The position numbers and the translations under genes are program-made. A stretch of DNA of 64,000 nt from a virus (lineage: Duplodnaviria; Caudoviricetes): IMG/VR virus record IMGVR_UViG_3300049740_002155, one strand, 5' to 3'. Of the stretch, positions 2,738 through 63,050 are shown one piece after another (the first letter of the stretch is position 1; each line of letters opens with the position of its first letter). The notes under the pieces are model-generated. The model made no database searches, was not told the origin of the DNA, and saw only the letters and a program-made list of their open reading frames with translations.

Positions 2738-3907
2738 ATGCAAGCACTAACTACTCTATATAAATTAGATACAACTGGTAAAATCCGTCAATGGACGGTC
2801 AAGGTAAAGGACAATTCGTTTTGGACTGAGCAAGGTCAAGTGGATGGTAAGATTGTAATTAACAAACCTACAATTACCACTCCCAAGAACGAAGGACGTG
2901 CTAATGCTACAACTGCTGAAGAGCAAGCAATACTTGAAGCAAAAGCAAAATATACCAAGTATCTTGATAAAGGATATGTAGAAAACATTGAAGATGTTGA
3001 TAAAATCACTTTGTATAATCCTATGCTTGCTCAGAAGTTTGAAGACCGTGTAGATGGTCTTACGTTTCCTTTATACACTCAACCCAAGTTGGATGGAGTT
3101 CGTTGTATTGTGTATATGCAAGACGGAGAATTGGTTGCTAAGTCTCGTCAAGGAAAACCTATTGATACCGTTGTTCATATTCTTGAAGAATTGAAACCTT
3201 TTTTTGAGCAAAGTCCAAATGCAGTTCTTGATGGAGAACTTTACAATCACGATTACAAAAACGACTTTAACAAAATCATTTCACTTGTCCGCAAAATGAA
3301 ACCGGTTCGTAGTGAAAAAGATACCGACAAAACATTCGCAAAGAAACAGGAAAAGTTTGCGATTGCTCTTGAAGAAGCAAAATCTAAAATTCAGTATTGG
3401 ATTTATGATGTTCCACGTGATGGTAATCTAACAGAAGCAGATGATTTTCATCCTCGTTTTTTTGGTGTGGAAATTCCAGAAACGAATTCGTGTGTAATTG
3501 TTAAAACCGGCATCGTTAATGATATGAAACAACTTGATGAATATTATGACACTTACATGGAGTTTGGATACGAAGGACAAATCGTTCGTATAAATGGTCC
3601 TTACGAAAACAAACGAAGCAAACTTCTTCTTAAACGAAAAGACTTTACAGATGCTGAATATCTTGTTATTGGCATCAACGAAGGAGATGGTAATCGCACC
3701 GGTACTGCAAAAAACCTTGTATGCAAAGATGAAGCAACTGGTAAAATCTTTAATAGCAACATCAAGGGAACGCACGAATATCTTGCGGAAATTCTTGTGA
3801 ATAAAGAAAATTATATCGGAAAGCAAGCAACCATCAAGTTCTTTGAGTTAACACCTGATGGTATTCCACGTTTTCCTTATGCTATCGCATTTCGTGATTA
3901 CGAATAA
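2738..3907 (+). CDS. ATP-dependent DNA ligase (phage type)
   Basis: motif I QPKLDGVR, LDGELY, motif IV EGQIVR, motif V LLKRKD, C-terminal GIPRFP. Confidence 0.95.
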   Translation: MQALTTLYKLDTTGKIRQWTVKVKDNSFWTEQGQVDGKIVINKPTITTPKNEGRANATTAEEQAILEAKAKYTKYLDKGYVENIEDVDKITLYNPMLAQKFEDRVDGLTFPLYTQPKLDGVRCIVYMQDGELVAKSRQGKPIDTVVHILEELKPFFEQSPNAVLDGELYNHDYKNDFNKIISLVRKMKPVRSEKDTDKTFAKKQEKFAIALEEAKSKIQYWIYDVPRDGNLTEADDFHPRFFGVEIPETNSCVIVKTGIVNDMKQLDEYYDTYMEFGYEGQIVRINGPYENKRSKLLLKRKDFTDAEYLVIGINEGDGNRTGTAKNLVCKDEATGKIFNSNIKGTHEYLAEILVNKENYIGKQATIKFFELTPDGIPRFPYAIAFRDYE

Positions 3908-4720: not shown

Positions 4721-5012
4721 CTTATACGAAATTCCAATTCAAAAAGATGAAGAAACAGACGAATGTTTTTTTGAATTACCTGATGCTTTGCTAAATAATC
4801 TTGGGTGGAAACCTGGTGACGATTTAAAGTGGGAAGAAACAAATGAAGGAGTTCGTCTTAGAAAAGTAAAATATCAAACGGTTGAACTTGAACTTGACGA
4901 AGAAGATTATGTAAAGTATTTAAAGTATGCTCACGAAAACAATATGAGTTTCAATGAGTTGGCAGAAAACGCAGTAAAAGAAGCAATGGAGAAAAAAAAT
5001 GGAACAACTTGA
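4713..5012 (+). CDS. AbrB/MazE-like putative DNA-binding protein
   Basis: FELPDALLNNLGWKPGDDLKW resembles the AbrB swapped hairpin; C-terminal helical extension. Confidence 0.5.
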   Translation: MSNLYEIPIQKDEETDECFFELPDALLNNLGWKPGDDLKWEETNEGVRLRKVKYQTVELELDEEDYVKYLKYAHENNMSFNELAENAVKEAMEKKNGTT

Positions 5013-28454: not shown

Positions 28455-29500
28455 ACAATGATTCACTCAAAAGAAATAAATGCTTGCTTTCGCAACCATT
28501 TGATTTCTTCTTCTTTCATCATATTATATAGCCGTGTTTTTTGCCCCACCCAATTACCCATAAAATGCGACTAGATATGGCCTGAAAAAGTTATATAAAT
28601 TTTTGCGGAAATAATGTATAATAGTAATAGTAATAGCTATACAAGTAATAGTAATGATAAAGTAGATAATATACGCATAATGCATAATAGTATAGGTAAT
28701 AGTAATATAGGTAATATAAACAAAATAGTAATAGTATCGTCTAACCTGTCTATAAATGCTAAATGCGTATAACATCAGGCTAGTTGCCCCCACGCATCAA
28801 CTGAGTATAATATTCATTATCATTCATATCATCAACTAACATCAATTATCATATACTTTGAATAACCTGATATAATAGTAATAATACGAGTATAGGTAAT
28901 AGACGAACAAGACTTTATTTAGGTAGGGTTATATGTCCCCAAAAATACCTTTTAACCTTGTATGCATGATAAACCTTGTATTATAGGTGTCAAATGCGTT
29001 CTTGGTGTCAAGGTGTATGTATTGATAGGTATATACATTTATTTATGTATAATATAATAGCTTACTGCTTACAAGAGGTGACAGCCTGCCATGCCCCCAA
29101 AAACAGCAAGGGGTTTCTCGCAGAGGCAACCAAATTATGCCATAGCTACTCATAGCAAAAAACACTATTGCTGTCAAGCCATTTCATACACATCCCTTAT
29201 TACTATTACTATTACTAATGATAATATGCATTGCCCCCACTAGCAACGGCCTGTATAAAGCAATTAGCACCTACGAAAAATAATTGCTGATATTCATTAC
29301 CTACACAAAATACTGAATACTAGCAACTTACACAAGGCCGTTAAATATTTTTTCTAGGTGCATATTATTTGCAGTAGGTGCTGGTTGCTATTATACTATA
29401 CTATTACTATGATGTACTTCATTACTATTACTATTACTTATAGCTTTACTATTATCATTATTATGAGTTGACTTTTCGCAAAAAATTTGGTACAATCATG
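28455..29500. repeat. ~1 kb non-coding low-complexity region with mirrored (TAATAG)n/(CTATTA)n arms and short direct repeats
   Basis: no credible ORF; AACCTTGTAT x2, GGTGTCAA x2, GCCCC(C)A boxes. Confidence 0.7.
29468..29496 (+). promoter_or_regulatory. sigma70-type promoter
   Basis: TTGACT-17-(TGG)TACAAT. Confidence 0.75.
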
Positions 29501-29571
29501 GGATTGTGGGAGGGGCCAAAGCTACACCCAAAATAGACTTCATTTTTCTTGATAAATTTATATTTATAAAA

Positions 29572-30279
29572 ATGGACAATTACGAAAATGCAATGCAATA
29601 TATTAACGAACAAGAAGCAACTGATATATCATATGTTAAAGTAGGTGATAATAACAAAAAACTGATCGTTTCCTTTGCAAGCAATGAACATCGTGGATTT
29701 GAAAGAAAAACCTCATTGATGACCTTGAAATACGAACACAATAACTTTGATGTATTGTATTTAAGAAATCAGTTTAAATGGTATCTCGATGGTTTAAACG
29801 GAATTGGAAAAAACATTAATTGTACCATTGAGTTTCTTAAAAAAGAATTTAGTAAATACGATAAAGTTTGTTGTGTAGGTAATAGTGCAGGAGGTTTTGC
29901 AAGTTTATTATTTGGAAGTTTGCTGAATGCAAATAAAGTAATTACTGTTAGTGCTCAAACTGATGTGCAATATTGTGCTGATAATTTACCCAATGATGCA
30001 TTCGGTAAAAGTAACTTAATTAAAATATCCGAGAAATGTCCGATTACTTGGAATAAATACAATAAAATAGCAAGTGTATTAAACAATGCTATTACATATC
30101 ATGTATATTATAGAGGTGATGCGTTTTGGAATAAACGGAATGAATTGAGAAATAGTCCTGAGCCTAAGGTTCTTCACGGAGACTATCACTACGACCTAAT
30201 CAAACATTGTCCGAGTGTAAGTAAATTTGATTCGAAGCCGGATGTTCATCCACTTATAGAAAAGTTCCTCGAAGAATAA
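29572..30279 (+). CDS. alpha/beta-hydrolase fold protein
   Basis: GNSAGG nucleophile elbow; ATATTTAT-N4-ATG start. Confidence 0.65.
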   Translation: MDNYENAMQYINEQEATDISYVKVGDNNKKLIVSFASNEHRGFERKTSLMTLKYEHNNFDVLYLRNQFKWYLDGLNGIGKNINCTIEFLKKEFSKYDKVCCVGNSAGGFASLLFGSLLNANKVITVSAQTDVQYCADNLPNDAFGKSNLIKISEKCPITWNKYNKIASVLNNAITYHVYYRGDAFWNKRNELRNSPEPKVLHGDYHYDLIKHCPSVSKFDSKPDVHPLIEKFLEE

Positions 30280-30296
30280 AGTTTTTATAATAATCT

Positions 30297-30325
30297 TGAC
30301 AAATTATAAAAACAACGTTACACTC
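30297..30325 (+). promoter_or_regulatory. sigma70-type promoter with no adjacent ORF
   Basis: TTGACA-17-TACACT followed by GGAGTGGGAGGGTGGG. Confidence 0.6.
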
Positions 30326-30619
30326 TAAGGAGTGGGAGGGTGGGTTACATATAAGTTATTCGGAAGTCAAAAAAAGTACCAAATGTTTTTGCAATGAATA
30401 CGACAGTTGAAAATCATCGCAAAGCATAACCATGTACTATATTACGCAAACTGGTGCATACGCACATTGTGAATTAAATTTTCAAATTAGAAATTATATT
30501 CTGGTTATTATACTGGTTATAGCTCATATTCAAAATTGAAATTAAAAATGCTGTTGTGCTTCGTGTGCTCTGCATAAAGTATTTGACTAATACCAATTTA
30601 TATTATAATATATAGTAAT

Positions 30620-30817
30620 ATGAAAAATGTGATATTAAATGTTTTAAAGAAATACTCGGATATGCAACTCAATTTAGAAAGCAAGGCTGCTCAACAGTTT
30701 CTGGCAAACAAAATAAATGAAGCACTATTAACTGAGATTAGAAAACAAAAACCTAAAGAGTGTAATGTTGCTGATATAAACCATGAATCGTTAACGGATA
30801 TGTTTCATCGTTCATGA
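30620..30817 (+). CDS. hypothetical protein
   Basis: 65 aa; TTGACT(30583)-17-TAATAT 8 nt before ATG. Confidence 0.6.
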   Translation: MKNVILNVLKKYSDMQLNLESKAAQQFLANKINEALLTEIRKQKPKECNVADINHESLTDMFHRS

Positions 30818-30891
30818 TAACCTATTTTGCTATTGCTATGTGTGCTTTGATGTTGTGTTGTTTGGTGTACGATTTGTTTTTTCATGATTGA
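30814..30891 (+). CDS. 25-aa hydrophobic micropeptide
   Basis: MITYFAIAMCALMLCCLVYDLFFHD, ATGA-coupled. Confidence 0.5.
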   Translation: MITYFAIAMCALMLCCLVYDLFFHD

Positions 30892-31051
30892 TTTTAGTGA
30901 TCCGGTATTTTACTGCATTATATTGCTGATGTGTGTGTATGCTTATATCGGAGGAAAATGGTTGGACAACCGTAATAAGATACATAACGATAAATTGAAA
31001 GAAGAAGAACGTAAAAATCGCATAAAAGAATTTAAGTCGGAAAAAATATAA
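30884..31051 (+). CDS. 55-aa single-pass membrane protein
   Basis: MIDFSDPVFYCIILLMCVYAYIGGKWL plus charged tail; overlaps previous stop. Confidence 0.6.
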   Translation: MIDFSDPVFYCIILLMCVYAYIGGKWLDNRNKIHNDKLKEEERKNRIKEFKSEKI

Positions 31052-31083
31052 AGTACTGATAATACGCAACTTACGAAAAAAAC

Positions 31084-31572
31084 GTGAATTCTCCAAAAAA
31101 ATTAAAAACGTATAATATCACATATCGTGAACATGAACATAATCCAATTAGTAACAAAACGGTTACCTATAAAGCAAATACTGCACAAGAAGCAGAAGAA
31201 CTTTTTTATGCTGATTATCCTGAACAAAAAGAACGCACTTATATAGAAATACATTCTCCACTAAGCAATTACCAAATTGACCACGACAATGAAAAAATTG
31301 CGGAAATACCAAAAGATACTAACATGAAAAAAATTAATATACTAAACGTATTCAAAACTGTAAATGAGTATGTACAACAAATAACAATGCTTATTATAGG
31401 ACTTATACCATTGCTATTATTAGGAGTCGTTATATTCGGTGATAATTTCTTTTTAGGCAATGTAGTAGTATATAACATACAGAACATACTAGATAGCATG
31501 GCTGGATTTGTAGGGTTAGTCACACTTATACTCATTGTATACTTTTATAGTCGCACTACCTCAAGCAAATAA
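31084..31572 (+). CDS. soluble N-terminal module fused to two-TM membrane module
   Basis: internal MKKINILN start near 31324; ..VIFGDNFFLGNVV..AGFVGLVTLILI. Confidence 0.55.
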   Translation: MNSPKKLKTYNITYREHEHNPISNKTVTYKANTAQEAEELFYADYPEQKERTYIEIHSPLSNYQIDHDNEKIAEIPKDTNMKKINILNVFKTVNEYVQQITMLIIGLIPLLLLGVVIFGDNFFLGNVVVYNIQNILDSMAGFVGLVTLILIVYFYSRTTSSK

Positions 31573-31659
31573 TCTCGCATACTCTTCCCACAAAATAAGT
31601 TATTATAATATTTATAATAACAAGGTCATATACGGCCTGTTATTTGTGGGAGAAAAAAT

Positions 31660-31764
31660 GTGGAAGATCTAAAAGATACTTTAATAGGTATAGCTATATT
31701 CGTAGTAGGAATACTAATCATCAATTATGTAGTTAAGTTCATAGGATTATTTATGTGCAACTAA
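31660..31764 (+). CDS. 34-aa hydrophobic micropeptide
   Basis: GTG start, EDLKDTLIGIAIFVVGILIINYVVKFIGLFMCN; GGGAG upstream. Confidence 0.45.
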   Translation: MEDLKDTLIGIAIFVVGILIINYVVKFIGLFMCN

Positions 31765-31824
31765 TCATTAGTATATATAATAGTATAATTTCTAGTAAAA
31801 TTAGTTTTTATAATATTTATAGGT

Positions 31825-31944
31825 ATGCGTAACTATATAACACCAGTACAACAGCCATTACTAAATAAAAAAACACTAAAAGTAAGTAAAAAAGCACTAT
31901 TAATAACAAGTGTACTAGTAGTAGCAGTATTGTGTAGTGGATAA
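31825..31944 (+). CDS. 39-aa basic/hydrophobic micropeptide
   Basis: ATATTTAT-N4-ATG; ...KKALLITSVLVVAVLCSG. Confidence 0.5.
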   Translation: MRNYITPVQQPLLNKKTLKVSKKALLITSVLVVAVLCSG

Positions 31945-32269
31945 TATAGGTATAATACTACTTAATACGATACTAATTTTTATTTTGCTTTATTCGGTTA
32001 GTGTTATAGTAGCATTGGTATATTAGTAGAACTACTAACATAAGTGGCTAACTTTTTTTTGTAACCAGAAAGCGAAACCGCCGAAAAACCGCCGGGCAGA
32101 CCTACTCTTGTGTGGATGACCATTTTTTTGTCAGATCTTTACTATACAAAAAACGTGACATCTAAAAAATGTTTTTTTGCCCGAAAAACCAAAAAATTAA
32201 AATGATAAATTTTTTTCTGAGGAATTTACTATGTGATTATTCAAGAAAAAGTAAATATTTATATACTAT

Positions 32270-32500
32270 ATGAAAAAATCGGAAAGTATAAATGAAGATT
32301 ATGTAATGGTATTGCACAATCCCGAACAAAATACCTATGACTACTTAATATATCGTGTATTAGACATCAGTTATATCAATGACAACAAAGTAGTAAACAT
32401 ACAACATCGCACCAAGAACAATCAATTAAACCGTCTTATTATGCCGTATCATATTTTCTTGGGACTTATAGAAGAAGATATTCTAACCAGATTACAATAA
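32270..32500 (+). CDS. hypothetical protein
   Basis: 76 aa, ATATTTAT-N7-ATG. Confidence 0.55.
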   Translation: MKKSESINEDYVMVLHNPEQNTYDYLIYRVLDISYINDNKVVNIQHRTKNNQLNRLIMPYHIFLGLIEEDILTRLQ

Positions 32501-32501
32501 T

Positions 32502-32897
32502 ATGAAGATATTAAACGGAAATAGGTACTTTGATAAAGACGATGTATCAGAACTCAAAAAGAAAAGCATTTATTTTGTGTCAAATAACCCGTCAAATGAG
32601 TATGATTTCATATATTCATTGGAAAAAGATGAATTAGATACCTTAATTGAAGGTATTACTGCAATGAATAACACTATAATGTGGGAATTTTTACAAGAAA
32701 CTGCGATTAACATGACTAAAATTGAGAAATGTTACAAAACTTTGCGTGTATATAGAACCAATAAAATATCATTTGACGAATTTAGAAACATACCAGCAGA
32801 CCAAGTAACCAGTTATTGTGTAGCAAAATACGAAAATTGGTTAAAAAACATCGGACAAGACATTTTTCTCAACTTTTTTGTGGAATACAAAATATAA
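32502..32897 (+). CDS. hypothetical protein
   Basis: 131-aa ORF. Confidence 0.55.
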   Translation: MKILNGNRYFDKDDVSELKKKSIYFVSNNPSNEYDFIYSLEKDELDTLIEGITAMNNTIMWEFLQETAINMTKIEKCYKTLRVYRTNKISFDEFRNIPADQVTSYCVAKYENWLKNIGQDIFLNFFVEYKI

Positions 32898-32932
32898 GTT
32901 AAAAAAACTAATCTTACTTCATATATATATTT

Positions 32933-33253
32933 ATGATAAATTTACTTGGATTCGGTAAAAACAAACCCAAAGGCATCAAAGTGACGATTGAGTATTGTCC
33001 TAAGAATGTTACTTTACCGTATAAAGTAAAAAAGTTAATAAATCAAGCATCATTACAAGTTCCTTCTTCTAAAGTTGATAATTCTAAGAAAGATCCTTTT
33101 AATTTTGCCGAAAAGACTGTGCGTGTTGGTGAGTTTCTAAATGAATACCAAGTTCAGCATTTAGTTGATAAAGCACGTGAAAACACAAATGAGTTTGAAA
33201 GTATCGAGATAGTAGAAAGAGAATCATCAGGACCTGAAATTCTTATTGATTGA
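32933..33253 (+). CDS. hypothetical protein, paralog family member 1 (distant)
   Basis: VRVGEFL motif resembling VSVGDR in neighbours. Confidence 0.55.
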   Translation: MINLLGFGKNKPKGIKVTIEYCPKNVTLPYKVKKLINQASLQVPSSKVDNSKKDPFNFAEKTVRVGEFLNEYQVQHLVDKARENTNEFESIEIVERESSGPEILID

Positions 33254-33258
33254 TTTTT

Positions 33259-33552
33259 ATGAATAAAATAGTAAAAGTACATCTTACCCGTTATGTAGGA
33301 GAACATCCTATTGCTATAAATACACCTGATCGTGTATATGAAATTGCGGAAATGGAAAATGCAGTAGTAGTTAATGTTAATAAACAAGCAAAACTGGAAT
33401 ACGGAGAAGGAACTCAAATAGAAGTTAGTGTAGGAGATAGATTAAGTAAACAACAAGCAGTACAAATAGCGAATACTTATGAAACTACTTTAATTGCTAT
33501 ATCATCAGATAATAATACTTCTACTGAGCATGGCTCATTATTAAAAGGTTAA
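33259..33552 (+). CDS. hypothetical protein, paralog family member 2
   Basis: LTRYVGEHP, EIAEMENAV, VSVGDRL. Confidence 0.6.
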   Translation: MNKIVKVHLTRYVGEHPIAINTPDRVYEIAEMENAVVVNVNKQAKLEYGEGTQIEVSVGDRLSKQQAVQIANTYETTLIAISSDNNTSTEHGSLLKG

Positions 33553-33596
33553 ATAGTTATTGACTAATTTTTGGGGACATTATATAATTCCCTATC

Positions 33597-33854
33597 ATGT
33601 TTAATAGTAAATCATCAGAAGGCACTACATATGTGTATTTAAAAAGATATGTAAAAAGTCATCCTACTGCTATGCTGGCTAGTGATGCTCACTTTGAAAT
33701 TATGAAAATTGAAAATGGTGTATGCTTTGAAATAAACAAAAACTCAGGATCAAAGCCTAAGATAGTTAGTGTAGGAGATAGAGTAAATATAAATCAAGCA
33801 TATGAAATCTCTTTAGAAGCAAACTGCATTGTAGAACCTGTGTATCCTAACTAA
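33597..33854 (+). CDS. hypothetical protein, paralog family member 3
   Basis: LKRYVKSHP, EIMKIENGV, VSVGDRV; TTGACT(33560)-17-TATAAT promoter. Confidence 0.6.
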   Translation: MFNSKSSEGTTYVYLKRYVKSHPTAMLASDAHFEIMKIENGVCFEINKNSGSKPKIVSVGDRVNINQAYEISLEANCIVEPVYPN

Positions 33855-33937
33855 GTGGTATACATCAATTTTTTGGGGGAATATTTACCCAACCTACATA
33901 ATAATTCTAAATTATAAAAAAATTATAAAAATAGATG

Positions 33938-33966
33938 TTGACGTTGAGAAGGTATTATGGTAAGAT
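33938..33966 (+). promoter_or_regulatory. sigma70-type promoter of rIIA
   Basis: TTGACG-17-(TGG)TAAGAT. Confidence 0.75.
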
Positions 33967-34101
33967 GATATCATAATGAGAAATACGAGAGAGATAGAAA
34001 ATCATTTTTTTCTAAGAACTATAATATAACTATAATAAATCGTAGACCTTATTCAGATTCTATTAAACCACTAACATATATTACATCAACTATCATCTAT
34101 T

Positions 34102-36360
34102 ATGCAAGTTAAGACAGCTCCTAACGTAGTAAGTAACACATTACCTAATACTACTCAGTATTCAATTAAAGCATCAGCAAAAGCATTTAAGATATTAAGT
34201 GATGGTTTATATAGTGACAAAATAGCTGCTCCTATTCGTGAGTTATCTACTAACGCATATGATGCTCACGTAGCCAAAGGTAATACTCATACACCTTTTG
34301 ATGTACACCTGCCTTCTGTAGCAGAGCCTTGGTTTGCTATTAGGGATTATGGTATTGGTATGAGCAAGCAAGAACTTGAAACTACTTATACTACTTACTT
34401 TGATAGCAACAAAACTCATAGCAACGACTTTGTGGGTTGTATGGGATTAGGAAGTAAAACTCCTTTTACTCTTAGTGATGCCTTTACGGTTACTTCTGTA
34501 AAAAACGGCAAGAAGACTACGGTTATCAATTACTTGGACGAGGATGTCCCAAATTTTTCTATCATCTCTGAGGAGAACACCGATGAAACATCTGGTACTG
34601 AAATCAAGTTTACTCCTTCTGAAGCAAATACCTACGATAAACTTCGTGAGTCTGCACAACGCATTCTTGGTTACTTTGATGTAACTCCGAATCTCACTAT
34701 CGGATCAACTAAAGAAGAAGTTAAAGTTCCTACCAAGAGACTTGAAGGAAAAGATTGGTATTATGTAGATTCACAACTTGCTTACTCTGATTCTATTATT
34801 CTTATGGGTAATGTTGCTTATCCTTTTAACTTCTCTGATGTTTCTGATGACTTTGAGAAAAAACACGGATGGAGCAACACTTACGAATATCGTAGACTGG
34901 TTAGCAATCTTGTATTTCGTGTTCCTATCGGTAACTTGGATATTACCGCAAGTCGTGAAGAAATCGGTTGGACAAGTGAAGGTCGTGAATACATGGTTAA
35001 TTTCGTTGAACGTGTTAACAACGAAATTAAGGATATAATGAACGAGCAATTAAATAAATGTGAGAACTTTTGGGATGCTCGTATTCTTTTTAATAGTATG
35101 GTTGGTTACAACGAAGAATACTACTCTGACATTGATCGTAACGGAAGTGGAAGCATTGGACACTTCAAGTGGACTGAACAACTATCGTGGAATGGAATAG
35201 ATGTATCTGAACGATACGGTGATGTTTCCAAGAATCCTAATCTTCAAAAAATGGAGTATCGTTTGTTTTGGTTGGGTTACGCAAAACGCAATCGGTATAG
35301 TAGTGGTGATAAGGTAAATCGTAGAAGTGATGTGAATGGTATTCTTCCGTTTGATGCCGAGGTTGAGTTTTTTCAAAATGATCTTCCGACTGGAAGTGTT
35401 AGTCGTGTAAATCATTATGTTCGTGAGAACAATCAAAAAGTAGTTCTTGTGTTTGATAAGTTTTCCAACAAAGAACGTAAGTATCTGAAACTCATTGGTT
35501 ATCCTTCTAAAGTTCGCAAAACTTCTGAATTAGAGAAACCTACGGTTAATCGTACTACATCCACTAAAACCAAAGGAACAATTATTGCTTGCAAGAAGAT
35601 TGATGATTGTGGGTGGAATCATGCGTGTAATTTCTCATCTGATGAAGAACTTCTATTAAACTCAAAGAAAACCATTTATTATGTTCCGATTCGTAATTGG
35701 AAAATTATTCATAAGAACGATGAGTATCATAATTCTCGTCACCTTGAGCAACTTCTTAAAAGGGTTACTGGACAAGATGAAGTGGACATTTATGGAATTA
35801 AGATTGGGCAAACCAAGAAATTATCCAAGTATGAAAACTTCAAGAATGTATTTGATGTAATTTCCGAATACATTGTTTCTTCGTTTGAAAACAAAACTGG
35901 TTCTCTTTATGAAAGTATTACCGCAAGAAAGTTTGATCACTTCAAAACTACACATTCTTACAAAACGGTACTTAATATCATTGATAATCGTGTTTTCAAA
36001 CGAGTTTGTGTTCTTCTCAAGCAATCTGGTAACGATGAATTGGTAAAAGAACTTTTCAAGATTCGTAGAATTATATCTATCAATCGTGATGCTTCCAAGA
36101 ATATATCTGAAGAAGATAATGGATTTGCCAATGACTTTGGAAACTTTGCAAGATACACTCGTAGTTTTGATGATAATAGTCTTACTTCATACTTTGCTTG
36201 TAAGGTGTCATACGAACTCAAGAACATCTATTCTATGCTTTCTAAAGAGTATCCTATGGTAAGGTATATGGGAAATGCTTTAGAGGGTTCTGGTAACTAC
36301 ACCAACGCAATGAACAATCTTGTAGAATACATGGAATTGATAAATTCCACTAAAAAGTAA
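34102..36360 (+). CDS. rIIA: rIIA-like protein (GHKL/Hsp90-type ATPase N-terminus)
   Basis: LSDGLYSDK.AAPIRELSTNAYDAH, IRDYGIGM, GCMGLGSKTPF, GTEIKF; followed by rIIB-like gene. Confidence 0.85.
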   Translation: MQVKTAPNVVSNTLPNTTQYSIKASAKAFKILSDGLYSDKIAAPIRELSTNAYDAHVAKGNTHTPFDVHLPSVAEPWFAIRDYGIGMSKQELETTYTTYFDSNKTHSNDFVGCMGLGSKTPFTLSDAFTVTSVKNGKKTTVINYLDEDVPNFSIISEENTDETSGTEIKFTPSEANTYDKLRESAQRILGYFDVTPNLTIGSTKEEVKVPTKRLEGKDWYYVDSQLAYSDSIILMGNVAYPFNFSDVSDDFEKKHGWSNTYEYRRLVSNLVFRVPIGNLDITASREEIGWTSEGREYMVNFVERVNNEIKDIMNEQLNKCENFWDARILFNSMVGYNEEYYSDIDRNGSGSIGHFKWTEQLSWNGIDVSERYGDVSKNPNLQKMEYRLFWLGYAKRNRYSSGDKVNRRSDVNGILPFDAEVEFFQNDLPTGSVSRVNHYVRENNQKVVLVFDKFSNKERKYLKLIGYPSKVRKTSELEKPTVNRTTSTKTKGTIIACKKIDDCGWNHACNFSSDEELLLNSKKTIYYVPIRNWKIIHKNDEYHNSRHLEQLLKRVTGQDEVDIYGIKIGQTKKLSKYENFKNVFDVISEYIVSSFENKTGSLYESITARKFDHFKTTHSYKTVLNIIDNRVFKRVCVLLKQSGNDELVKELFKIRRIISINRDASKNISEEDNGFANDFGNFARYTRSFDDNSLTSYFACKVSYELKNIYSMLSKEYPMVRYMGNALEGSGNYTNAMNNLVEYMELINSTKK

Positions 36361-41222: not shown

Positions 41223-42558
41223 TTCCGTGGGCAACAGCTGCATTTGCTACTCTTAAAAACCCACCAACATTTGCTCCGAGAGTATAATCTCCTTCTGTTC
41301 CGTATTTCCTTGCATTACGCAAACATGAAGCATGAATCTGCTTCATTATTTCTCGTAATTTATTATCGACTTGTGGCATACTCCACTTTTCCCATCCTGC
41401 GTTCTGACGCATTTCTAGTGCTGATACTGCAACCCCACCTGCGTTTACTGCTTTACTTGGTGCAACCACTACCAATTTATCATTAAATAACTTTATTGCG
41501 TCTTCTGTGCAAGGCATATTGGCTGCTTCTGCAACAAACTTACAATCATTATCAATAAGCATTTCCGCATCTTTTTCGTTTATTTCGTTTTGAATTGCAC
41601 TTGGTATTGCTATATCACACGGAACTTCCCAAGGTTTTTTTCCTTTGATATAATCAACTCCGAATTTTTCTGCGAATGGTTTTACAATGTCTTTGTTACT
41701 TTCACGCAACACTTCCATATACGGAATCATATTCTTTTTAATTCCATTCTTCATGTGAACATATCCATCTGGACCAGAAATAGTAACTACTTTAGCACCC
41801 ATTTCTACTGCTTTTTTTACAACACCAAATGCAACTTGACCAAATCCACTTACCGTAATAATTTTTCCTTTAATATTGGTGTGATGGTTTTTTAGCATTT
41901 CTTCTGTAAAATAAATTGTTCCGAATCCAGTTGCTTCTTTTCTTCCGTGTATACCTCCCCATGCAGGTGCTTTACCTGTAATAAGACCAGGTTCATATTT
42001 GCTATATAATGCTTTATATTGACCGAATAAATACCCTATCTCTTTATACCCAACTCCAATGTCACCCGCCGGTACATCTGTCTTGTGACCAAGGTGTTCA
42101 TGAAGTTTAGTCATAAACGACTGACAAAATCTCATAATCTCCAAATCTGTTTTTCCGTTAGGATCAAAATCACTTCCACCCTTTGCTCCTCCAATTTGTA
42201 AACCAGTTAATGAGTTCTTAAATGTTTGTTCAAATCCAAGAAACTTCATCGTTCCTAAATTCACACTTGGATGGAATCTCAATCCACCTTTGTATGGTCC
42301 TAGTACACTATTAAATTGAACACGATACCCACGATTAACATGAACATTTCCTATTTCGTCAATCCAAGGAACACTAAATATAATTTGTTTTTCTGGTTCT
42401 GCTAATCTTTCTAATAGATTTACTTTCTTAAACTCAGAATGTTTATCTATGACAGTGTGTAAACTTGAGTATACTTCATTTACTGCCTGTATAAATGTTG
42501 GTTCAGAATGATTTCTTTCTTCTACCCGTTTTATTACATCATCAACATACTTGCTCAT
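41215..42558 (-). CDS. gdhA: NAD(P)-dependent glutamate dehydrogenase (copy B)
   Basis: [41 protein letters not shown]. Confidence 0.93.
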   Translation of the reverse strand: MSKYVDDVIKRVEERNHSEPTFIQAVNEVYSSLHTVIDKHSEFKKVNLLERLAEPEKQIIFSVPWIDEIGNVHVNRGYRVQFNSVLGPYKGGLRFHPSVNLGTMKFLGFEQTFKNSLTGLQIGGAKGGSDFDPNGKTDLEIMRFCQSFMTKLHEHLGHKTDVPAGDIGVGYKEIGYLFGQYKALYSKYEPGLITGKAPAWGGIHGRKEATGFGTIYFTEEMLKNHHTNIKGKIITVSGFGQVAFGVVKKAVEMGAKVVTISGPDGYVHMKNGIKKNMIPYMEVLRESNKDIVKPFAEKFGVDYIKGKKPWEVPCDIAIPSAIQNEINEKDAEMLIDNDCKFVAEAANMPCTEDAIKLFNDKLVVVAPSKAVNAGGVAVSALEMRQNAGWEKWSMPQVDNKLREIMKQIHASCLRNARKYGTEGDYTLGANVGGFLRVANAAVAHGII

Positions 42559-54719: not shown

Positions 54720-56135
54720 TTAAAATGCAAAGAATTCTTTGCTTTTATTTTTTTCACTTGCTTGTGTAGGACTCTCTGCATCATTTACTCGTGTTTTGGC
54801 AATAATAGCATAATCCTTTTCTTTTTCAATTCCGATATATTTTCTATCAAGCAGTTTGGCCGCAATACAAGTTGTTCCACTTCCAACAAACGGATCAACA
54901 ACAACATCATTTTCACGACTTCCAAGTGTTACTAAATAACTCATAAGTTCAATAGGTTTGACAGTTGGATGAACGTTTTGTTTTTCCGTGACAAATCTAC
55001 CGGTAACATCGTGGTCGATTTTGCTATTGCTCATATCTTCTGCATTTCTTCTTCCTGGCATTGATGAACTTTTCTTTTTGGGAAGATGTTCAAGACCTTT
55101 GTTTTTTTCTGCTTTGCTTGCTTTTGCGACAATCATAAAAGGAAATGTCTTTTGAACACTTTTGGGTAATTTATGTATTTGTGATTTCCACCAAGAATCC
55201 AAATCGTAAAAACGAGAAAATGATCCTTCGTCTCCGTAAGTTCTTCCGGCAGGTTTGCCTGTACTTTCTTGCCAAATACCACCAGATGCACTTCCACTAT
55301 CTGTGTGTTTTCCTTTGCTTCGTTTTACTCCATCATTAAGTACATCATCTTGTACAATCAAATTGGCTGCAAATCTTCCGTCTGGTTTGTCGTAACCAAT
55401 TTGTTCCCCACTTGAATAAACTCCAGTATTTTCTCCGTGGAATCCACCACGATCATCACTTTGTTTATTTTGAGATTCGGATTGATCATCTTCGTTTTTG
55501 TAAGGAATTCTACAATCGTCCAACCAAGTAATTCCTTTGCCATTTTTCATTGCTTGTTCAATGGTGGTTTTTTCTGTGATTGGTTTCATTGCAACAAGTA
55601 CAACTTCTACCGCAGGTTTTGGTTGATAACCAACATAAGAACCTTCAAGTGCTTTTGCTTCATCGGATGCAGGTTCAGTTATATCGGGTGTTCTTCTTTC
55701 TTGCGTGTCACTATCCTTCCAATTGTTATATGTAGTTAGTTCTTGGTTGCCTTCAGGAGTTTTGTATTTTCCAATAACTTTTCTTTTTTTACCAAGTTGC
55801 TTGTCCACCGTCTTTCCTACATTATGTGCTTTTGGAAATCCTGTTGCGTATGTCCAATAAATCGGAGTGAATCCGATATTGAATCCTGCATCTTCTAAAC
55901 GAACCATCATACGACTTTGTACATCTGAACGAGGTGCTGACATAACGAAGCAGAATCCTCCTGGTTTCAAAACTCGTAGACACTCTTGCCAAATTTCTAA
56001 TGCAGGAACTGCTTTGTCCCAATCACGATTCATAAACGAATAACCATAAGGTGGGTCTGTGCAGATCAAGTCTACCGATTCATCCTCAAGTTTCTTGAGA
56101 ACTTTCAAACTATCTCCATTGATTATTTTATTCAT
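54720..56135 (-). CDS. N4/N6 DNA methyltransferase, beta class, with large insertion
   Basis: GDSL, TDPPY near N-terminus; HPTVKP and DPFVGSGT near C-terminus. Confidence 0.9.
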   Translation of the reverse strand: MNKIINGDSLKVLKKLEDESVDLICTDPPYGYSFMNRDWDKAVPALEIWQECLRVLKPGGFCFVMSAPRSDVQSRMMVRLEDAGFNIGFTPIYWTYATGFPKAHNVGKTVDKQLGKKRKVIGKYKTPEGNQELTTYNNWKDSDTQERRTPDITEPASDEAKALEGSYVGYQPKPAVEVVLVAMKPITEKTTIEQAMKNGKGITWLDDCRIPYKNEDDQSESQNKQSDDRGGFHGENTGVYSSGEQIGYDKPDGRFAANLIVQDDVLNDGVKRSKGKHTDSGSASGGIWQESTGKPAGRTYGDEGSFSRFYDLDSWWKSQIHKLPKSVQKTFPFMIVAKASKAEKNKGLEHLPKKKSSSMPGRRNAEDMSNSKIDHDVTGRFVTEKQNVHPTVKPIELMSYLVTLGSRENDVVVDPFVGSGTTCIAAKLLDRKYIGIEKEKDYAIIAKTRVNDAESPTQASEKNKSKEFFAF

Positions 56136-57024
56136 AACTAAAAAACTTATTTGAGTTAACACGAAGCTCGTCTTGCTCACAATAATCGGGTATTTCATAT
56201 TCACCTTTTTTGCGAAAAACCATAATATATTCGTGTATTTTACTTGTGTATCTTTTGCTTGCTACTTTCGCACATTGAACATAAGCAAACGGACTAAGAT
56301 TCTTCATAATAATTGTATCGTGGTGAATCATTCCTTCGTTTACAAATGCAGTAATCAAGTCCGAATGAAAACTACGAAGACCACTACCTGTCATATCTCT
56401 CCAATCTGAAACAACCCATACGCAAAATGCTCCTGGTTTCAAAACACGATTTATATTTTTACCACACTTTTGAATTTGAGTCATAAAGTCTTCGTATGTT
56501 TCACATTCACTTAATTGATTTTTTGCAGTTTCGTATTTTTCAAGATTGTGATACGGAGGACAAGTAAATACCAAATCAGCAGTTTCATTTCGTGTATATA
56601 ACATCTCTGTTCCATCACAATTAAAAAGTTTGGGTGATACCTTGAACTTTTTAAAATGTTTCATACAACGATCATATGTTTGCTTTGATACTTCGTAACC
56701 TTGATAGTTACGACCAAGTTTACTTGCAACCATAGCACGTGTAGCACGACCTGAAAATGGGTCTACGATTACACTTCCACGCATACTCCAATAACGAAGA
56801 ATTTGCTCTGCTAATCCTGCGTGAAACTCACTGAATCTAAGACCAGGAAGATTCTCTGCATCTTTACTTCTTTTTGTTTCACGAATTCCATCATCAAGAT
56901 ATGCTTCCGGCCATTGTTCACGGTGATCACGACTTGGTTCTAATACACTCAAAGGCAACCAACCGAATTGTTCGTCAATTCTACAATCTTTTCTGATTGG
57001 AAGTATTTGATTATAGTTTGCCAT
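56128..57024 (-). CDS. N4/N6 DNA methyltransferase
   Basis: VDPFSGRAT (motif I) then FTCPPY (motif IV). Confidence 0.85.
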   Translation of the reverse strand: MANYNQILPIRKDCRIDEQFGWLPLSVLEPSRDHREQWPEAYLDDGIRETKRSKDAENLPGLRFSEFHAGLAEQILRYWSMRGSVIVDPFSGRATRAMVASKLGRNYQGYEVSKQTYDRCMKHFKKFKVSPKLFNCDGTEMLYTRNETADLVFTCPPYHNLEKYETAKNQLSECETYEDFMTQIQKCGKNINRVLKPGAFCVWVVSDWRDMTGSGLRSFHSDLITAFVNEGMIHHDTIIMKNLSPFAYVQCAKVASKRYTSKIHEYIMVFRKKGEYEIPDYCEQDELRVNSNKFFSYE

Positions 57025-59531
57025 TAGAAAGCAAAAAACTTTTGAGCAGTTGCAAGATTCTCACTTGCAAAGTCCCAACTAAGTGCATCGTAAAAGTCAC
57101 GCAACTTTCCTTCAAGTTCTCGTTCAAACAATTTATCTTTATCTGCATACTTCTCAATAAACTCCATAAGTTGTGGTGGGTCTTCATAACCACGAAACGC
57201 AAGTGCATCTAAACCAAGTTCATTGTTCTTCAAATAAATCCACTTAATTTTTTCACCATTACGAATAGGTTCACTTTGTATTTTAAACTTTTTGAGAAAC
57301 TGATTGTGAATGATACTTGATTTAACGTGTGCGGGTGTACTTTTTGCACACTCACCCATAACTGCACCTTTATCCATCATCTTTACATACTTGGATATAT
57401 TTTTAACTGCACTCGTCTTTGCAATATCATCAACCGACTCGTTCTTAACTTGCTTTTTGAGTGTAACAATCTTTTCATCAATTTCTTCTTTCGGTACATC
57501 CTTCAAAATATCTTTGAGGATTTCCGTCATAAACTTACGAAACCGAGTTGGAAAACTACTACGCACAACATCAAGACCTTTAACTTCCAATTCGTCACAA
57601 GTAACACCGTTGTTGTTGATAATCCATTGTGCATATCGTTTCTTTGCCAACCACATACTTGCTTTGGCAATCACTTCTTGTTTAATGTCATAACGATGCT
57701 CTTCAATGTTGAAGAAACGTTTTGCCATAACATCATAACTTTTATTGATGAAGTTTTGTACATCACCCGCAACTTCAAGAATTGCAGTTGCCATTTCGTC
57801 ATCGTTCTTTACATCAACGTGAGGCATCGTTTTTTCTACGATAGGCAATGCTGAAAAGAAAACCGAGTCGGTATCAATGTATATACAATGATCTTCTGTA
57901 TCACCAAGTGTTTTATTGTAATAGTGATTCGCAATCTTGCGACTAAACTTAATCACGGACACACCTGTGGTCGTAACTGCTTCTGCATTGTCCACATCAT
58001 AAAACCGAAAAATAGGCAAACCAAGAACACCATACAACGAATTAAGAAGAATCTTTTGCACGTGCTGACGTCTTTTATAGAACACATACTTTGCATCGTC
58101 ACCTGAGTTACCATACTCTTTCATTTTGTTCTTGAACTCAACACGTTGGTTGAACCATTGATCAAGAATCGCAGGAATAAGTCCGACCTTATTCTTGGTA
58201 TACATAACTCCGTTGCTACTGATAGAAAGATTGTTATCTTTTAGAAATGCCTTGAACTCATCTGCTGAATATGTTTCTCCACGAAATCCAACTTCGGTTT
58301 GTTCTCCGTCACAAAACTTCTCGGGACTCCAATTATCAACAACACCCACTTTGGTTTCTGGTGAAATATTCGTGGACATAATAATAGATGGATACAGAGA
58401 AGTTAAATCCAAGTCAAACACCCACTTGTATTTGCCAGGTGTCGGTGCAGCCACATATGCTCCACTAAACTTCTTGGATTCGTCACCTTTAATTTCATTG
58501 AATCGTTCACGACCATTTGGGTCTTTATTTGGTGCGACAAGATTGTGTCTGCGAAGATAAGTAAGCAATGCACCTTCAAGATAACGAGACGAAAATAAAA
58601 TGTCTTCATACGGAACGTGTCCAACGTGACAAATGCTACGAGTCAATTCAATGAGTTCCATCTTTCTATCAATCTCAACAACAATCTTTACGTCGTTCAA
58701 ATTGTATTCAATGAACTTCTCAATATCTTGTGAAAACAAATCATCAAGATTACCTTCGTATTCAACTTTACCAATACCAACTTCTTTACGACCAATTGCA
58801 TCCAAACGATAACTTGGTTCAACACTAAATGTAAAGTTCTTGTATAACGCAAGATAATCCAAGCAACTAACACCTGCAATAACAATACGTTTCTTGAACT
58901 GATGATAATATGCGTGTCCAATAGGACTCAAACGATTTGCATCACCTTGCCCTAAAACTCTTGCGAGTCTACGATACAAATAAGGAACGTCAAAGTAATC
59001 AATGTTCCAACCGGTCAATATTGTCGGACTAATCTCTTGATAAAAATCAAGAAAGTGTTCAAGCATTGCTCGTTCTGTATCATAAGAATAAACCGAAACT
59101 TCATCATTAGAATAGTCGGTGATTTTATCTTCCTTGTCTAAAACAAGAACCACATAGTTATTAGAACAACTATCGTGATACGCAATGGAAGTAATAGGAT
59201 TGTTTGCTCGTTCTGTGTCAGGCAACTCTCCTTCCATACTAACCTCAATATCGAAGTTTAATACACAATGACCTGTACTTGGTTCATCGTCATCTTCGTA
59301 CAAATCAATTAAATTACGTGTTTCAATCGGAACATCTGATTCAAACAAACCTTCGTCTTCATAACGATACTTAGTTACCTTTTCTAACTTGTCACCATAC
59401 ATACTACGATACATTCCGTTCGGAGACTTTCTGTATGCGTATGGTTTGTTTTTGTAGGTTACTAAACCTTGTTTATCATCCCACAAATAAATTGTGTTGT
59501 TCTTTTTGCTTACGAATATATTTTGGTACAT
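57024..59531 (-). CDS. family B DNA polymerase (gp43-like)
   Basis: exo FDIE, GWNIDYFD, YNLND; pol DLTSLYPS, KILLNSLYG, YIDTDS; TTGACT-17-TACGAT 8 nt before ATG. Confidence 0.97.
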   Translation of the reverse strand: MYQNIFVSKKNNTIYLWDDKQGLVTYKNKPYAYRKSPNGMYRSMYGDKLEKVTKYRYEDEGLFESDVPIETRNLIDLYEDDDEPSTGHCVLNFDIEVSMEGELPDTERANNPITSIAYHDSCSNNYVVLVLDKEDKITDYSNDEVSVYSYDTERAMLEHFLDFYQEISPTILTGWNIDYFDVPYLYRRLARVLGQGDANRLSPIGHAYYHQFKKRIVIAGVSCLDYLALYKNFTFSVEPSYRLDAIGRKEVGIGKVEYEGNLDDLFSQDIEKFIEYNLNDVKIVVEIDRKMELIELTRSICHVGHVPYEDILFSSRYLEGALLTYLRRHNLVAPNKDPNGRERFNEIKGDESKKFSGAYVAAPTPGKYKWVFDLDLTSLYPSIIMSTNISPETKVGVVDNWSPEKFCDGEQTEVGFRGETYSADEFKAFLKDNNLSISSNGVMYTKNKVGLIPAILDQWFNQRVEFKNKMKEYGNSGDDAKYVFYKRRQHVQKILLNSLYGVLGLPIFRFYDVDNAEAVTTTGVSVIKFSRKIANHYYNKTLGDTEDHCIYIDTDSVFFSALPIVEKTMPHVDVKNDDEMATAILEVAGDVQNFINKSYDVMAKRFFNIEEHRYDIKQEVIAKASMWLAKKRYAQWIINNNGVTCDELEVKGLDVVRSSFPTRFRKFMTEILKDILKDVPKEEIDEKIVTLKKQVKNESVDDIAKTSAVKNISKYVKMMDKGAVMGECAKSTPAHVKSSIIHNQFLKKFKIQSEPIRNGEKIKWIYLKNNELGLDALAFRGYEDPPQLMEFIEKYADKDKLFERELEGKLRDFYDALSWDFASENLATAQKFFAF

Positions 59532-61823: not shown

Positions 61824-63050
61824 TCAATTCTTTTTCCAAATCCAAATTGGTTCTGCGAATGCAACATCTTTATTTTCTTCGGTAATTTCTTTGAGGTCTT
61901 CCGAGAAATATTCACTCTTGGCATTACCTGCTCCACCTGAATTAAATCGTTTCGTCATTTCCATTCCAACGCAACCAAGATATTCAAGACCTTGTGATTT
62001 AATAAAGTCATTCATTGGATTTGTGATTTCAACATAGTCGTTGATAGGAGCATTGAATACATCTGCAATGTTGATGGCAAGAATACCATTCTTCTTTATT
62101 GCCGGAATTATCTTACCGAGGGTGGTGTGAAGAAACTTCTCGTTCCAATCATCTATCTTTTTATATCGTACCCAAGATTGCGTATCATCTTCTGAATACT
62201 TTTCTGTATTAAAATAAGGTGGACTTGTAAACACCGTATCAAAGTAATTTTCATATTGGGAGTAATCTACGTCTTCGGCAGGACTTTCTATTAAGTCTGC
62301 TTTTCTATTCTGTTCAAAAAAGGTAGAATACTTTTCATAGAACTGAATTTGCTTTTGGTAATTAGGATGGTTAAGTGTATTGGGATCAATTCCAACATAA
62401 TGCTCTGTGGTTTCACCTGTATAAAATCCCGCTAATCTATCTCCCCAACCTGCACTAAAGTCTAATACGTTCTTGCTTTGAAAGTGATCATAAAATGCTT
62501 TTGCTACTGCTGGTTTGAATTGTGATGCGACATACTTACGAAGGGTCGTAGCAACACGAAGAGTATTAACATCAACACGATTAAGAACTTTATCCAATGT
62601 CCAATAAGCACGAACAATTGTTTTGATTCCTTTCACCGTCTGCCAAGTTTTCCAACCACTTGGTGTTCTTGTCCAGTCTACTTTCCAACGAGTTTCTACA
62701 TGAAATGGATTAGAAGCATTGTTACCCGAGTTGTTTCTTTTCAATAGAAACTGAGAATCTTTGTAGTTAAGGTGGTAGTTGCTTTTTCTTTCATTGCGAG
62801 GAAACCACTTTTTTTCTACAAGCACATCATTGTGCTTTATTCCTTTTAACTTGTTCAAACTATCAAGAGTTTGCTTATCCGTAATCTCGGGTAAAGGAGC
62901 AGGATATGTGTGTAATACTTTAGCAAGTTCTTCTACAACATCTTCTTTATCATACTTTTGCATGATATCTTTCCATTCATCTTCTTCAATTAGAAGGTAT
63001 GGTTTCATGTTGTAGAACTTTTTAAAATGTTCTTTTAAGTCAACACACAT
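61824..63050 (-). CDS. N4/N6 DNA methyltransferase-like protein
   Basis: VLDFSAGWGDRLAG (motif I), FTSPPYFNTEKY (motif IV). Confidence 0.85.
   Translation of the reverse strand: MCVDLKEHFKKFYNMKPYLLIEEDEWKDIMQKYDKEDVVEELAKVLHTYPAPLPEITDKQTLDSLNKLKGIKHNDVLVEKKWFPRNERKSNYHLNYKDSQFLLKRNNSGNNASNPFHVETRWKVDWTRTPSGWKTWQTVKGIKTIVRAYWTLDKVLNRVDVNTLRVATTLRKYVASQFKPAVAKAFYDHFQSKNVLDFSAGWGDRLAGFYTGETTEHYVGIDPNTLNHPNYQKQIQFYEKYSTFFEQNRKADLIESPAEDVDYSQYENYFDTVFTSPPYFNTEKYSEDDTQSWVRYKKIDDWNEKFLHTTLGKIIPAIKKNGILAINIADVFNAPINDYVEITNPMNDFIKSQGLEYLGCVGMEMTKRFNSGGAGNAKSEYFSEDLKEITEENKDVAFAEPIWIWKKN

Follow-up and report, generated by a model that had tools for sequence, protein, structure and literature searches.

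A clade-wide locus permissive for RGCY sites, from a non-coding control element to the start of rIIA, in marine phages that otherwise avoid them

We analysed a 64,000-nucleotide (nt) stretch of a Caudoviricetes genome (IMG/VR record IMGVR_UViG_3300049740_002155, hereafter the window) in which the word RGCY (R, A or G; Y, C or T) is strongly avoided, and a locus within it where this avoidance is lifted. The locus, an RGCY island at 28530-34330, is an old, clade-wide RGCY-permissive region composed of the largest non-coding control element, a shuffled block of small early genes and the first ~340 nt of the gene rIIA. Our preferred reading is that RGCY sites cost little here, the locus being shielded from a separate, RGCY-specific agent. 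It is a tentative reading, to which we give a probability of about 0.35.

Megablast against sequenced phages returned no close relative of the window, whose G+C content is 33.6%. The window contains 88 RGCY sites against ~450 expected from base composition, an observed/expected ratio (O/E) of 0.20. The avoided class is V-GC-B (V, not T; B, not A): of the 1686 GC dinucleotides, all but 102 have a T on their 5' side or an A on their 3' side. V-GC-B is the genome-wide rule, and RGCY is a weaker layer of it. Avoidance is graded, with O/E values in the window of 0.02-0.03 for CGCG, GCGC and AGCG/CGCT, 0.06 for GGCG/CGCC and 0.10 for AGCT, followed by AGCC/GGCT (0.25) and GGCC (0.37). The background O/E of AGCT is 0.25 under a first-order and 0.38 under a second-order Markov model. 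TCGA (0.20) and CTAG (0.17) are likewise avoided. There are at least two separate layers of avoidance, one hard and uniform (CGCB/RGCG, GCGC, CGCG, TCGA) and one softer (RGCY). As to the flanks, a 5' C or a 3' G is avoided more than A/T, and A/T more than G/C, while a 5' T of the GC on either strand exempts the site, which would fit blocking by a modified thymine.

V-GC-B makes up 1.7-5% of GC dinucleotides in each codon frame, showing avoidance in all three frames, and non-coding DNA outside the island is purged like coding DNA in three genomes (0.45-1.2 RGCY/kb). A codon-pair (translational) origin was rejected because the avoidance is present in all frames and in other non-coding DNA. Among Ala codons that follow a base other than T, 89% are GCA. 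Deamination products are not in excess (O/E 0.92 for RGTY and 1.06 for RACY), while words produced by flank choice are (1.55 for RGCA and 1.66 for TGCY). RGCY words have thus been removed through selection of flanking bases and not by methylation-driven mutational decay, and the analogy with CpG islands drawn in the initial annotation of this DNA has to be abandoned on the same grounds. About one RGCY per kb is left throughout the genome, including long-lived background sites at 41521 (kept in 19 of 20 relatives) and 45350 (12 of 12).

All RGCY positions listed in the initial annotation were verified. There are 13 sites in 28530-29523 and 29 in 28530-34330, and these are the highest counts for any 1-kb and any 5.8-kb segment of the window. 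Neither number was reached in 5000 randomisations, whether sites were placed uniformly or RGCY labels were shuffled among the 1686 GC dinucleotides (scan statistic P<2e-4), and RGCY accounts for 29 of the 166 GC dinucleotides of the island (hypergeometric P = 6e-10). Since the cluster survives the label shuffle, the island is real and not due only to local GC-dinucleotide density; the density claimed to be above background is indeed so. The V-GC-B share of GC dinucleotides is 15-27% in the island vs 4.6% in the background. RGCY is as frequent as chance predicts in the non-coding element and at the 5' end of rIIA, and about half as frequent as that in the block of open reading frames (ORFs); by part, O/E is 1.9 and 1.4 in these two conserved anchors and 0.5 in the variable block between them. 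No motif is common to both island boundaries. A general excess at gene 5' ends was considered and discarded, being just 1.6-fold in the first 200 nt of 195 genes, too little for rIIA; tRNA or known RNA genes were discarded as a cause too, as there are none in the window.

Further information was obtained from relatives. Searching with the rIIA sequence brought up 65 metagenome loci and, in IMG/VR, three long contigs; the window was also compared with the records of two relatives, G1 (170 kb) and G2 (135 kb). The initial annotation had envisaged that relatives might lack the pattern, and they do not: the same island lies in the same place, beside rIIA, in ~40 metagenomic contigs of relatives whose rIIA identity goes as low as 56%, and the locus was found in every relative with enough flank. 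Within the clade it spans from the conserved 1.1-kb element to about +340 nt within rIIA, and its length stays at 5.5-7 kb despite varying gene content. The element, aligned in 12 relatives, shows 59-88% nt identity (one near-duplicate pair, 99%) and is always 4.2-6.4 kb upstream of rIIA where the flank suffices. When three of its conserved blocks were searched in IMG/VR, only the three known contigs were recovered, other exact matches being otherwise unlike the window. Among 14 relatives, RGCY O/E is 0.36-0.92 in the locus vs 0.05-0.23 downstream. Averaged across as many as 41 relatives, the density in sites/kb is 4-14 in the element, ~0 at 32.2-33.4 kb, 4-9 at 33.4-33.8 kb and 6-13 at 34.0-34.6 kb, and then exactly 0 at 34.6-36.6 kb (30-41 relatives).

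Outside the island, contigs with 45-97% rIIA identity have an RGCY O/E of 0.00-0.25, the interrupted contig L043 excepted, and contigs with 29-50% rIIA identity (41-51% G+C) have 0.63-0.98, i.e. no avoidance. L043 was discarded as an RGCY-tolerant relative, as its extra sites fall in unrelated sequence past rIIA codon 513; in this contig (L043:3548-4840) the rIIA match ends at that codon and RGCY-rich sequence follows, owing either to an insertion or to a chimeric assembly. Across 15 genomes, the richness of the island was not significantly correlated with the strength of background avoidance (Spearman 0.40, P=0.14).

The relaxation is specific to certain words. We compared 136 tetramers between island and background by first-order Markov O/E, pooling the window, G1 and G2. 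AGCC/GGCT is at 0.84 in the island vs 0.28 in the background, GGCC at 0.95 vs 0.66 and AGCT at 0.56 vs 0.25, and all four RGCY words are relaxed at the rIIA locus in each of the three genomes. No such change is seen for TCGA (0.35 vs 0.31), AGCG (0.13 vs 0.08) or CGCG and GCGC (0 vs 0.05-0.07). At the locus, only the RGCY layer is lifted. The avoidance had been described as switched off, which is right for AGCC/GGCT and GGCC, both at chance, but AGCT is still about two-fold low and CGCB/RGCG, GCGC, CGCG and TCGA are purged as elsewhere. CTAG had also been called commoner in the island; it is so about two-fold (9 of 34 sites), but other TAG words are equally so, which fits non-coding, TAATAG-rich sequence. 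Higher-order composition accounts for the TAG words and G/C runs that are commoner in the island too.

TCGA is avoided genome-wide about as weakly as AGCC/GGCT, yet it is not relaxed in the island, which weighs against a foreign origin, against selection weakened by genetic draft and against tolerance of breaks in a terminal repeat. Genetic draft, or any general loss of selection efficacy, was rejected on this basis. All avoided words are relaxed in an import-like cassette of contig L027 (positions 1-2500, to the left of the element), and in the island RGCY is the only class that is. The doubt cast on simple gene import in the initial annotation is supported, and the locus is present in every relative with enough flank. 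Overall, the data argue against recent import, against a mutational origin of the CpG-island kind, against a terminal repeat in which breaks are tolerated and against sites that are strictly required. They also argue against a feature that non-coding DNA or the 5' ends of genes would show in general.

The island ends inside a gene. The ORF at 34102-36360 (+ strand) is rIIA, with 29% identity by tblastn to the rIIA of KVP40-type vibriophages and a Pfam HATPase_c_3 N-terminal domain. Its first 340 nt (34102-34441) cover the N-terminal GHKL ATPase domain as far as the G2 box, the place where the island stops, and hold four RGCY sites in the window (+15, +123, +171 and +224) and five in most relatives. 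The remainder of the gene (34442-36360, about 2 kb) holds none, either in the window or in 30-41 relatives. In the window alone, sites occupy 4 of 18 GC dinucleotides in the first part and none of the 31 beyond it (Fisher P=0.014), so that support for the boundary is modest there, and the contrast is partly compositional, with 18 GC dinucleotides in 340 nt vs 31 in the remaining 1.9 kb. Context-free genome codon usage predicts 1.7 sites in the first 450 nt, where four are seen, and 4.2 in the rest, where none is. The boundary within rIIA noticed in the initial annotation recurs in the ~40 related contigs, with a V-GC-B O/E mostly of 0.4-1.0 in the first 340 nt and of 0-0.17 in the rest (0.5 in one contig).

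A synonymous change could remove every one of the rIIA sites, which fall in ACA-GCT, ATA-GCT, GTA-GCC and GAG-CCT, and in GGC-TGT for the fifth site of most relatives. Most of them are inherited from a common ancestor. In the deeper L035/L037 lineage three were lost and two gained, and L029 has gained one; RGCY density is kept at the rIIA 5' end while positions turn over. The gene is mosaic in two contigs, L050 (rIIA at 3445) and L051 (rIIA at 4951), where codons 1-140 show 88-100% amino acid identity and 0.73-0.95 third-position identity to the window, and the sequence beyond shows 25-75% amino acid identity. The break places a crossover around codons 140-160, where the GHKL domain ends. A comparable identity break is found near codon 400 in L003.

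The core of the island is the non-coding element at 28470-29560, 1.1 kb long and conserved, with 13 RGCY and no CGCB/RGCG or TCGA. It contains no ORF, tRNA or Rfam match. GC dinucleotides are denser there (44/kb vs 26/kb), and 27% of its 48 GC dinucleotides belong to RGCY sites, ~25% being expected by chance. Repeat analysis revealed a left arm of degenerate TAATAG hexamer arrays (28611-28902, + strand) and a right arm of CTATTA arrays, its reverse complement (29198-29464, + strand), where assemblies break at varying coordinates. TAATAG is the top island-enriched 6-mer in the window, G1 and G2. Several AGCT sites of the left arm are the variant TAATAGCT, and seven of the nine AGCT sites at the rIIA locus of the window read ATAGCT, one of the variants of the ATAG-type repeat words, which are abundant. 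Between the arms, two GGTGTCAA repeats (28966-29011, - strand) form a block that is unchanged in four aligned relatives, and one of the two repeats makes up, on the minus strand, a predicted sigma-70-like promoter, TTGACA-16-TATCAT, with 11 of 12 matches in a consensus scan. A predicted sigma-70-like early promoter, TTGACT-17-TACAAT, with a GGGAGGGG leader follows at 29468-29496 (+ strand), in a block kept in all aligned relatives. The element also carries TGCCCCCA boxes. Judged as an oriC-like region, by iterons and an AT-rich unwinding region, it has inverted TAATAG/CTATTA arrays and GGTGTCAA repeats present and conserved in a non-coding stretch. A long imperfect hairpin lies at 29259-29389, with arms AGCACCTA...AAAAATAA and TTATTTTT...TAGGTGCT; it apparently persists in relatives, with the 3' arm shifted.

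Element sites differ in how they are retained. Some are kept in 67-100% of relatives with changes that preserve R and Y (28579 in 10 of 10, 29144 in 12 of 14), and one alignment column (102) shows all four RGCY variants. In the 13-sequence alignment, the number of V-GC-B sites per element goes from 3 (L053) to 17 (L035), and L053, L002 and L040 keep the element with only 2-5 RGCY. On average, island sites are kept in 0.55 of aligned relatives vs ~0.46 predicted from the fourth power of local identity, and background sites in 0.41 vs 0.56 predicted. Consequently, island sites appear about neutral while background sites are being lost, and such near-neutrality argues against required signals.

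The small-ORF block between the element and rIIA lies on the + strand and gave nothing informative in PHROGs and Pfam searches. It begins with an accessory ORF of 235 amino acids without family (29572-30279, two RGCY), absent at this place in L001 and L003. Small ORFs, mini membrane-peptide ORFs and non-coding stretches follow at 30280-32269, with seven RGCY, patchy gene content among relatives and a second conserved promoter, predicted by consensus scan, at 30296-30324. A GC-rich patch with AGCG, CGCC and CGCC at 32071-32093 is non-coding and upstream of the ORF at 32270; the patch (32064-32100), which has the direct repeat AAACCGCCG, accounts for 3 of the window's 14 non-RGCY V-GC-B sites. 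Three small ORFs (32270-33253) form an RGCY-free hole, where relatives mostly have 0-0.3 sites/kb and at most 2.6 in one 200-nt bin. ORF comparison showed that the next two, of 100 and 85 amino acids (33250-33854, three RGCY and one AGCG), are paralogues; the two (33250-33552 and 33597-33854) have in common the motifs (Y/H)L(K/T)RYV..HP and VSVGDR, and neither ORF matches a family.

The island is not unique, since G1 and G2 hold further RGCY-rich patches. These are a tRNA cluster, part of a 2775-amino-acid tape-measure-like ORF (L087:2820-11147, - strand; patch at codons ~445-1400) and, in both genomes, a ~1200-amino-acid ORF without family (1202 in G1, L090:8188-11796, - strand; 1163 in G2, L098:16295-19786, + strand). 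All avoided words are relaxed in the tRNA cluster, which has eight genes in G1 (L092:5284-6049, - strand) and five in G2 (L096:19337-19677 and L097:457-532). The structural-gene patches have a higher G+C content, 37-42%. In those of G1, GGCC and AGCC/GGCT are relaxed and AGCT is not (0-1 sites); the 1163-amino-acid ORF of G2 has 15 AGCT, and AGCT is less avoided across G2.

A functional domain had been suggested in the initial annotation, namely an origin, a packaging start or a genome terminus gated or protected by methylation. Cumulative GC skew has no inflection at the locus, which does not speak for an origin there; it rises steadily over 17-39 kb, and its inflections elsewhere track gene orientation. 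For termini, the evidence comes from assembled contigs. Contigs of 80-359 kb pass through the locus, and those that start in it do so at differing coordinates of the hexamer arrays (window positions 28618, 28982, 29122, 29142 and 29218), so neither a packaging start nor a terminus is supported. RGCY sites as required signals fare no better, with conservation close to the local-identity prediction, positions that turn over and three lineages down to 2-5 RGCY. Three metatranscriptomes and one virome, taken as contigs, contained no RNA contig over the element, a result that is uninformative either way.

Of these suggestions, the link to methylation is plausible. Two genes with clear Pfam matches to N6/N4 DNA methyltransferases (PF01555) lie on the - strand at 54720-56204 and 56128-57024, the latter adjoining a family-B DNA polymerase (57024-59531), and a third match (61824-63050, - strand) is weak. 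In each relative there are 5-7 matches to PF01555 and none to PF00145 (C5 methylase). From their family assignment, these enzymes are candidate readers of short GC words. Marine myovirus-like genomes are reported to carry a mean of 2.2 methyltransferase genes, mostly of the N4-methylcytosine (m4C) type, and no motif was found methylated more often in the viral genomes of that survey than RGCY (m4C) (Hiraoka et al. 2022, PMC8919816). CCWGG and GGWCC, other common motifs of those genomes (PMC8919816), are not strongly avoided here. What did not hold from the methylation proposal is a required tight cluster of the P1 pac type, and the authors of that survey consider multi-motif m4C patterns unlikely as packaging delimiters (PMC8919816). 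An interplay of restriction, methylation and avoidance at RGCY seems plausible in general. Residual AGCT sites outside the island are skewed to CAGCTG, with 3 of 10 in the window (1732, 41236 and 44317), 14 of 43 in G1 and 41 of 144 in G2. This bias would fit the rescue of some sites by a methyltransferase of longer motif. In G2 (L095-L101), the 41 CAGCTG are 3.1 times the expected number, with 144 AGCT vs 43 in G1, an excess that suggests a lineage-specific, PvuII-like m4C methyltransferase.

According to our preferred reading, a distinct DNA-acting agent, most plausibly an RGCY-type restriction activity, would impose the RGCY avoidance, and the phage's own N4-cytosine methyltransferases may partly counter restriction. 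The locus would be shielded when the agent acts, either by efficient local methylation or by proteins bound to the iteron-like arrays and to strong early promoters, and RGCY sites would be tolerated there and not used as signals. As in restriction avoidance, RGCY is depleted on both strands and in all frames, and the depletion is shared by close relatives and absent in distant ones. Several observations weigh against shielding. We infer the shielding step itself, and no named mechanism confines methylation or occupancy to the locus. The RGCC/GGCY-rich islands in the two large structural genes of relatives fall outside an explanation based on a control region. The island is patchy, ~32.2-33.4 kb being RGCY-free in the window and almost so in relatives. 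The purge of the element in L053, L002 and L040 implies that selection can act there. The excess at the rIIA 5' end amounts to only 4-5 sites, largely shared by descent, and the contrast with TCGA presumes that avoidance of this word is imposed at the DNA level by a nuclease.

Other explanations have to be weighed against shielding. The locus could be a recombination module, that is, a hyperplastic region between two anchors, the element and the rIIA N-terminal domain, where exchanged cassettes repeatedly import RGCY or the sites hitch-hike with cassette sweeps, and where the boundary marks the end of nucleotide homology between lineages. We regard this as unlikely, although not negligible: gene content at 29.6-33.3 kb varies among relatives, many metagenome contigs break in the locus, rIIA breaks in L050 and L051 (codon 140-160) and in L003 (codon ~400), and the other islands lie in large structural genes of an often-exchanged kind. 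However, RGCY density peaks in the conserved anchors and not in the variable block, TCGA and CpG-containing words are still fully purged while the import-like L027 cassette relaxes all, and island sites are not conserved below the local-identity prediction. Moreover, no RGCY-tolerant donor was found among contigs of similar rIIA (45-97%), which all avoid RGCY, or in IMG/VR, where the element is restricted to the clade, and other small-gene and non-coding regions are purged. It is less probable that the sites are working signals, recognised as a cluster by a methyltransferase of the phage (or by a nuclease partnered with it) so as to control early transcription, an origin or the start of packaging. 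The inverted, iteron-like arrays of hexamers on either side of a conserved, promoter-bearing centre, the preservation of R and Y at several sites, methyltransferases beside the polymerase and RGCY m4C in marine myoviruses (PMC8919816) would all suit such a role. Near-neutral conservation overall, elements with 2-5 RGCY in three lineages, turnover of the rIIA sites and the spread of sites across 6 kb including ORFs do not, nor do the lack of a GC-skew inflection or common contig end and the doubts of the PMC8919816 authors on packaging delimiters.

The island might instead need no special cause, weak and uneven avoidance leaving several patches, by chance or composition, one of which persists by shared descent. 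The ~1 RGCY/kb found everywhere with some old background sites, the other islands, the richness of the element in GC dinucleotides and in ATAG words that yield ATAGCT, and an rIIA contrast of only P=0.014 in one genome all point this way, but the scan statistic stays below 2e-4 even with GC-dinucleotide density fixed and the V-GC-B share is raised several-fold over background. In addition, the deep L035 lineage has swapped rIIA sites (three lost, two gained) while keeping their density, and the other 1.9 kb of the gene has none in all relatives; we consider mere chance or composition rather improbable, somewhat more so than working signals. The idea that the RGCY reader is encoded by the phage is a long shot. 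The reader would be a methyltransferase, a nuclease or nickase that cuts frequently, as chlorovirus CviJI does, or both, and the genome-wide purge would lend this 4-bp reader its locus specificity, host DNA being hit everywhere and the phage's own DNA essentially only from the element to the rIIA start. If true, the resulting marks, nicks or breaks might serve to initiate recombination-dependent replication, to promote the exchange of cassettes or to set the timing of early transcription, and self/non-self discrimination and site targeting would be achieved through word avoidance and not through a long recognition sequence. Least probable to us, by a little, is a long direct repeat or terminally redundant segment with early genes (T5/SPO1-like) whose boundary falls in rIIA and where cuts are repaired from the second copy. 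It would account for sharp, sequence-anchored boundaries, one of them intragenic, for the strong sigma-70-like promoters that accompany small early ORFs, for a non-coding end rich in repeats, and for a constant 5.5-7 kb despite variable gene content. Nevertheless, tolerance of breaks should also relax TCGA, CGCG, GCGC and AGCG, all as depleted inside as outside, the RGCY-free hole speaks against one uniform domain, and contig ends differ while long contigs run through. T4-type phages, furthermore, normally package by headful with permuted ends.

It follows that the V-GC-B pressures are separable and that at least one is position-dependent. The pattern also singles out a defined stretch, the main non-coding element with the leader of rIIA, in which methylation and termini could be mapped. 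Should shielding or marking by the phage's own methyltransferases prove true of the locus, this would give a function to the puzzling multi-motif m4C of marine myoviruses. If it is not, the island is a caution against reading site-rich islands as imports.

The closest known systems are those of phage restriction-site avoidance, such as the T7/T3 leading region, T5 first-step-transfer DNA and Marinomonas Murciavirus (PMC12455610), in which a short word is also depleted by synonymous or flank choice, unevenly and in common with relatives. The last study shows that the position of a motif can decide whether it matters (PMC12455610). In the known cases a small, first-injected region is site-free and sites may occur in the remainder, whereas here ~98% is purged and one 6-kb locus is permissive. 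The relaxation is also confined to a single word class.

In P1 pac and E. coli oriC, as at the locus, a short methylatable word clusters locally in a control region that is non-coding or at the 5' end of a gene and has hexamer repeats on its flanks, and our phage encodes methyltransferases. However, P1 pac requires seven sites within 162 bp, while here 13 sites are spread over 1.1 kb and 29 over 5.8 kb, are about neutral and, in some lineages, have almost vanished from the element. Neither P1 nor E. coli has purged GATC from the remainder of its genome, and contig data give no terminus or skew signal in our case. The marine myovirus-like genomes with RGCY m4C (PMC8919816) share with this clade the habitat, the kind of phage, several N4/N6 methyltransferase genes and the word RGCY itself. 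They carry and methylate RGCY, whereas the present clade has removed ~80-90% of it.

Vertebrate CpG islands are alike in that a depleted short word persists at promoters and 5' gene ends, but CpG loss is mutational and leaves an excess of TpG/CpA, whereas RGCY has been removed by placing T before or A after GC. T4-type hyperplastic regions, as in the PeSL model, also contain shuffled small early ORFs behind a conserved sigma-70-like promoter and leader, beside core genes. To our knowledge, no difference in restriction-word content is described for them, and other small-gene regions of the window obey the avoidance. In summary, restriction-word avoidance is usually treated as a genome-wide trait or as a marker of foreign DNA, while here one class of words is lifted at one conserved locus across a clade of abundant marine jumbo phages.

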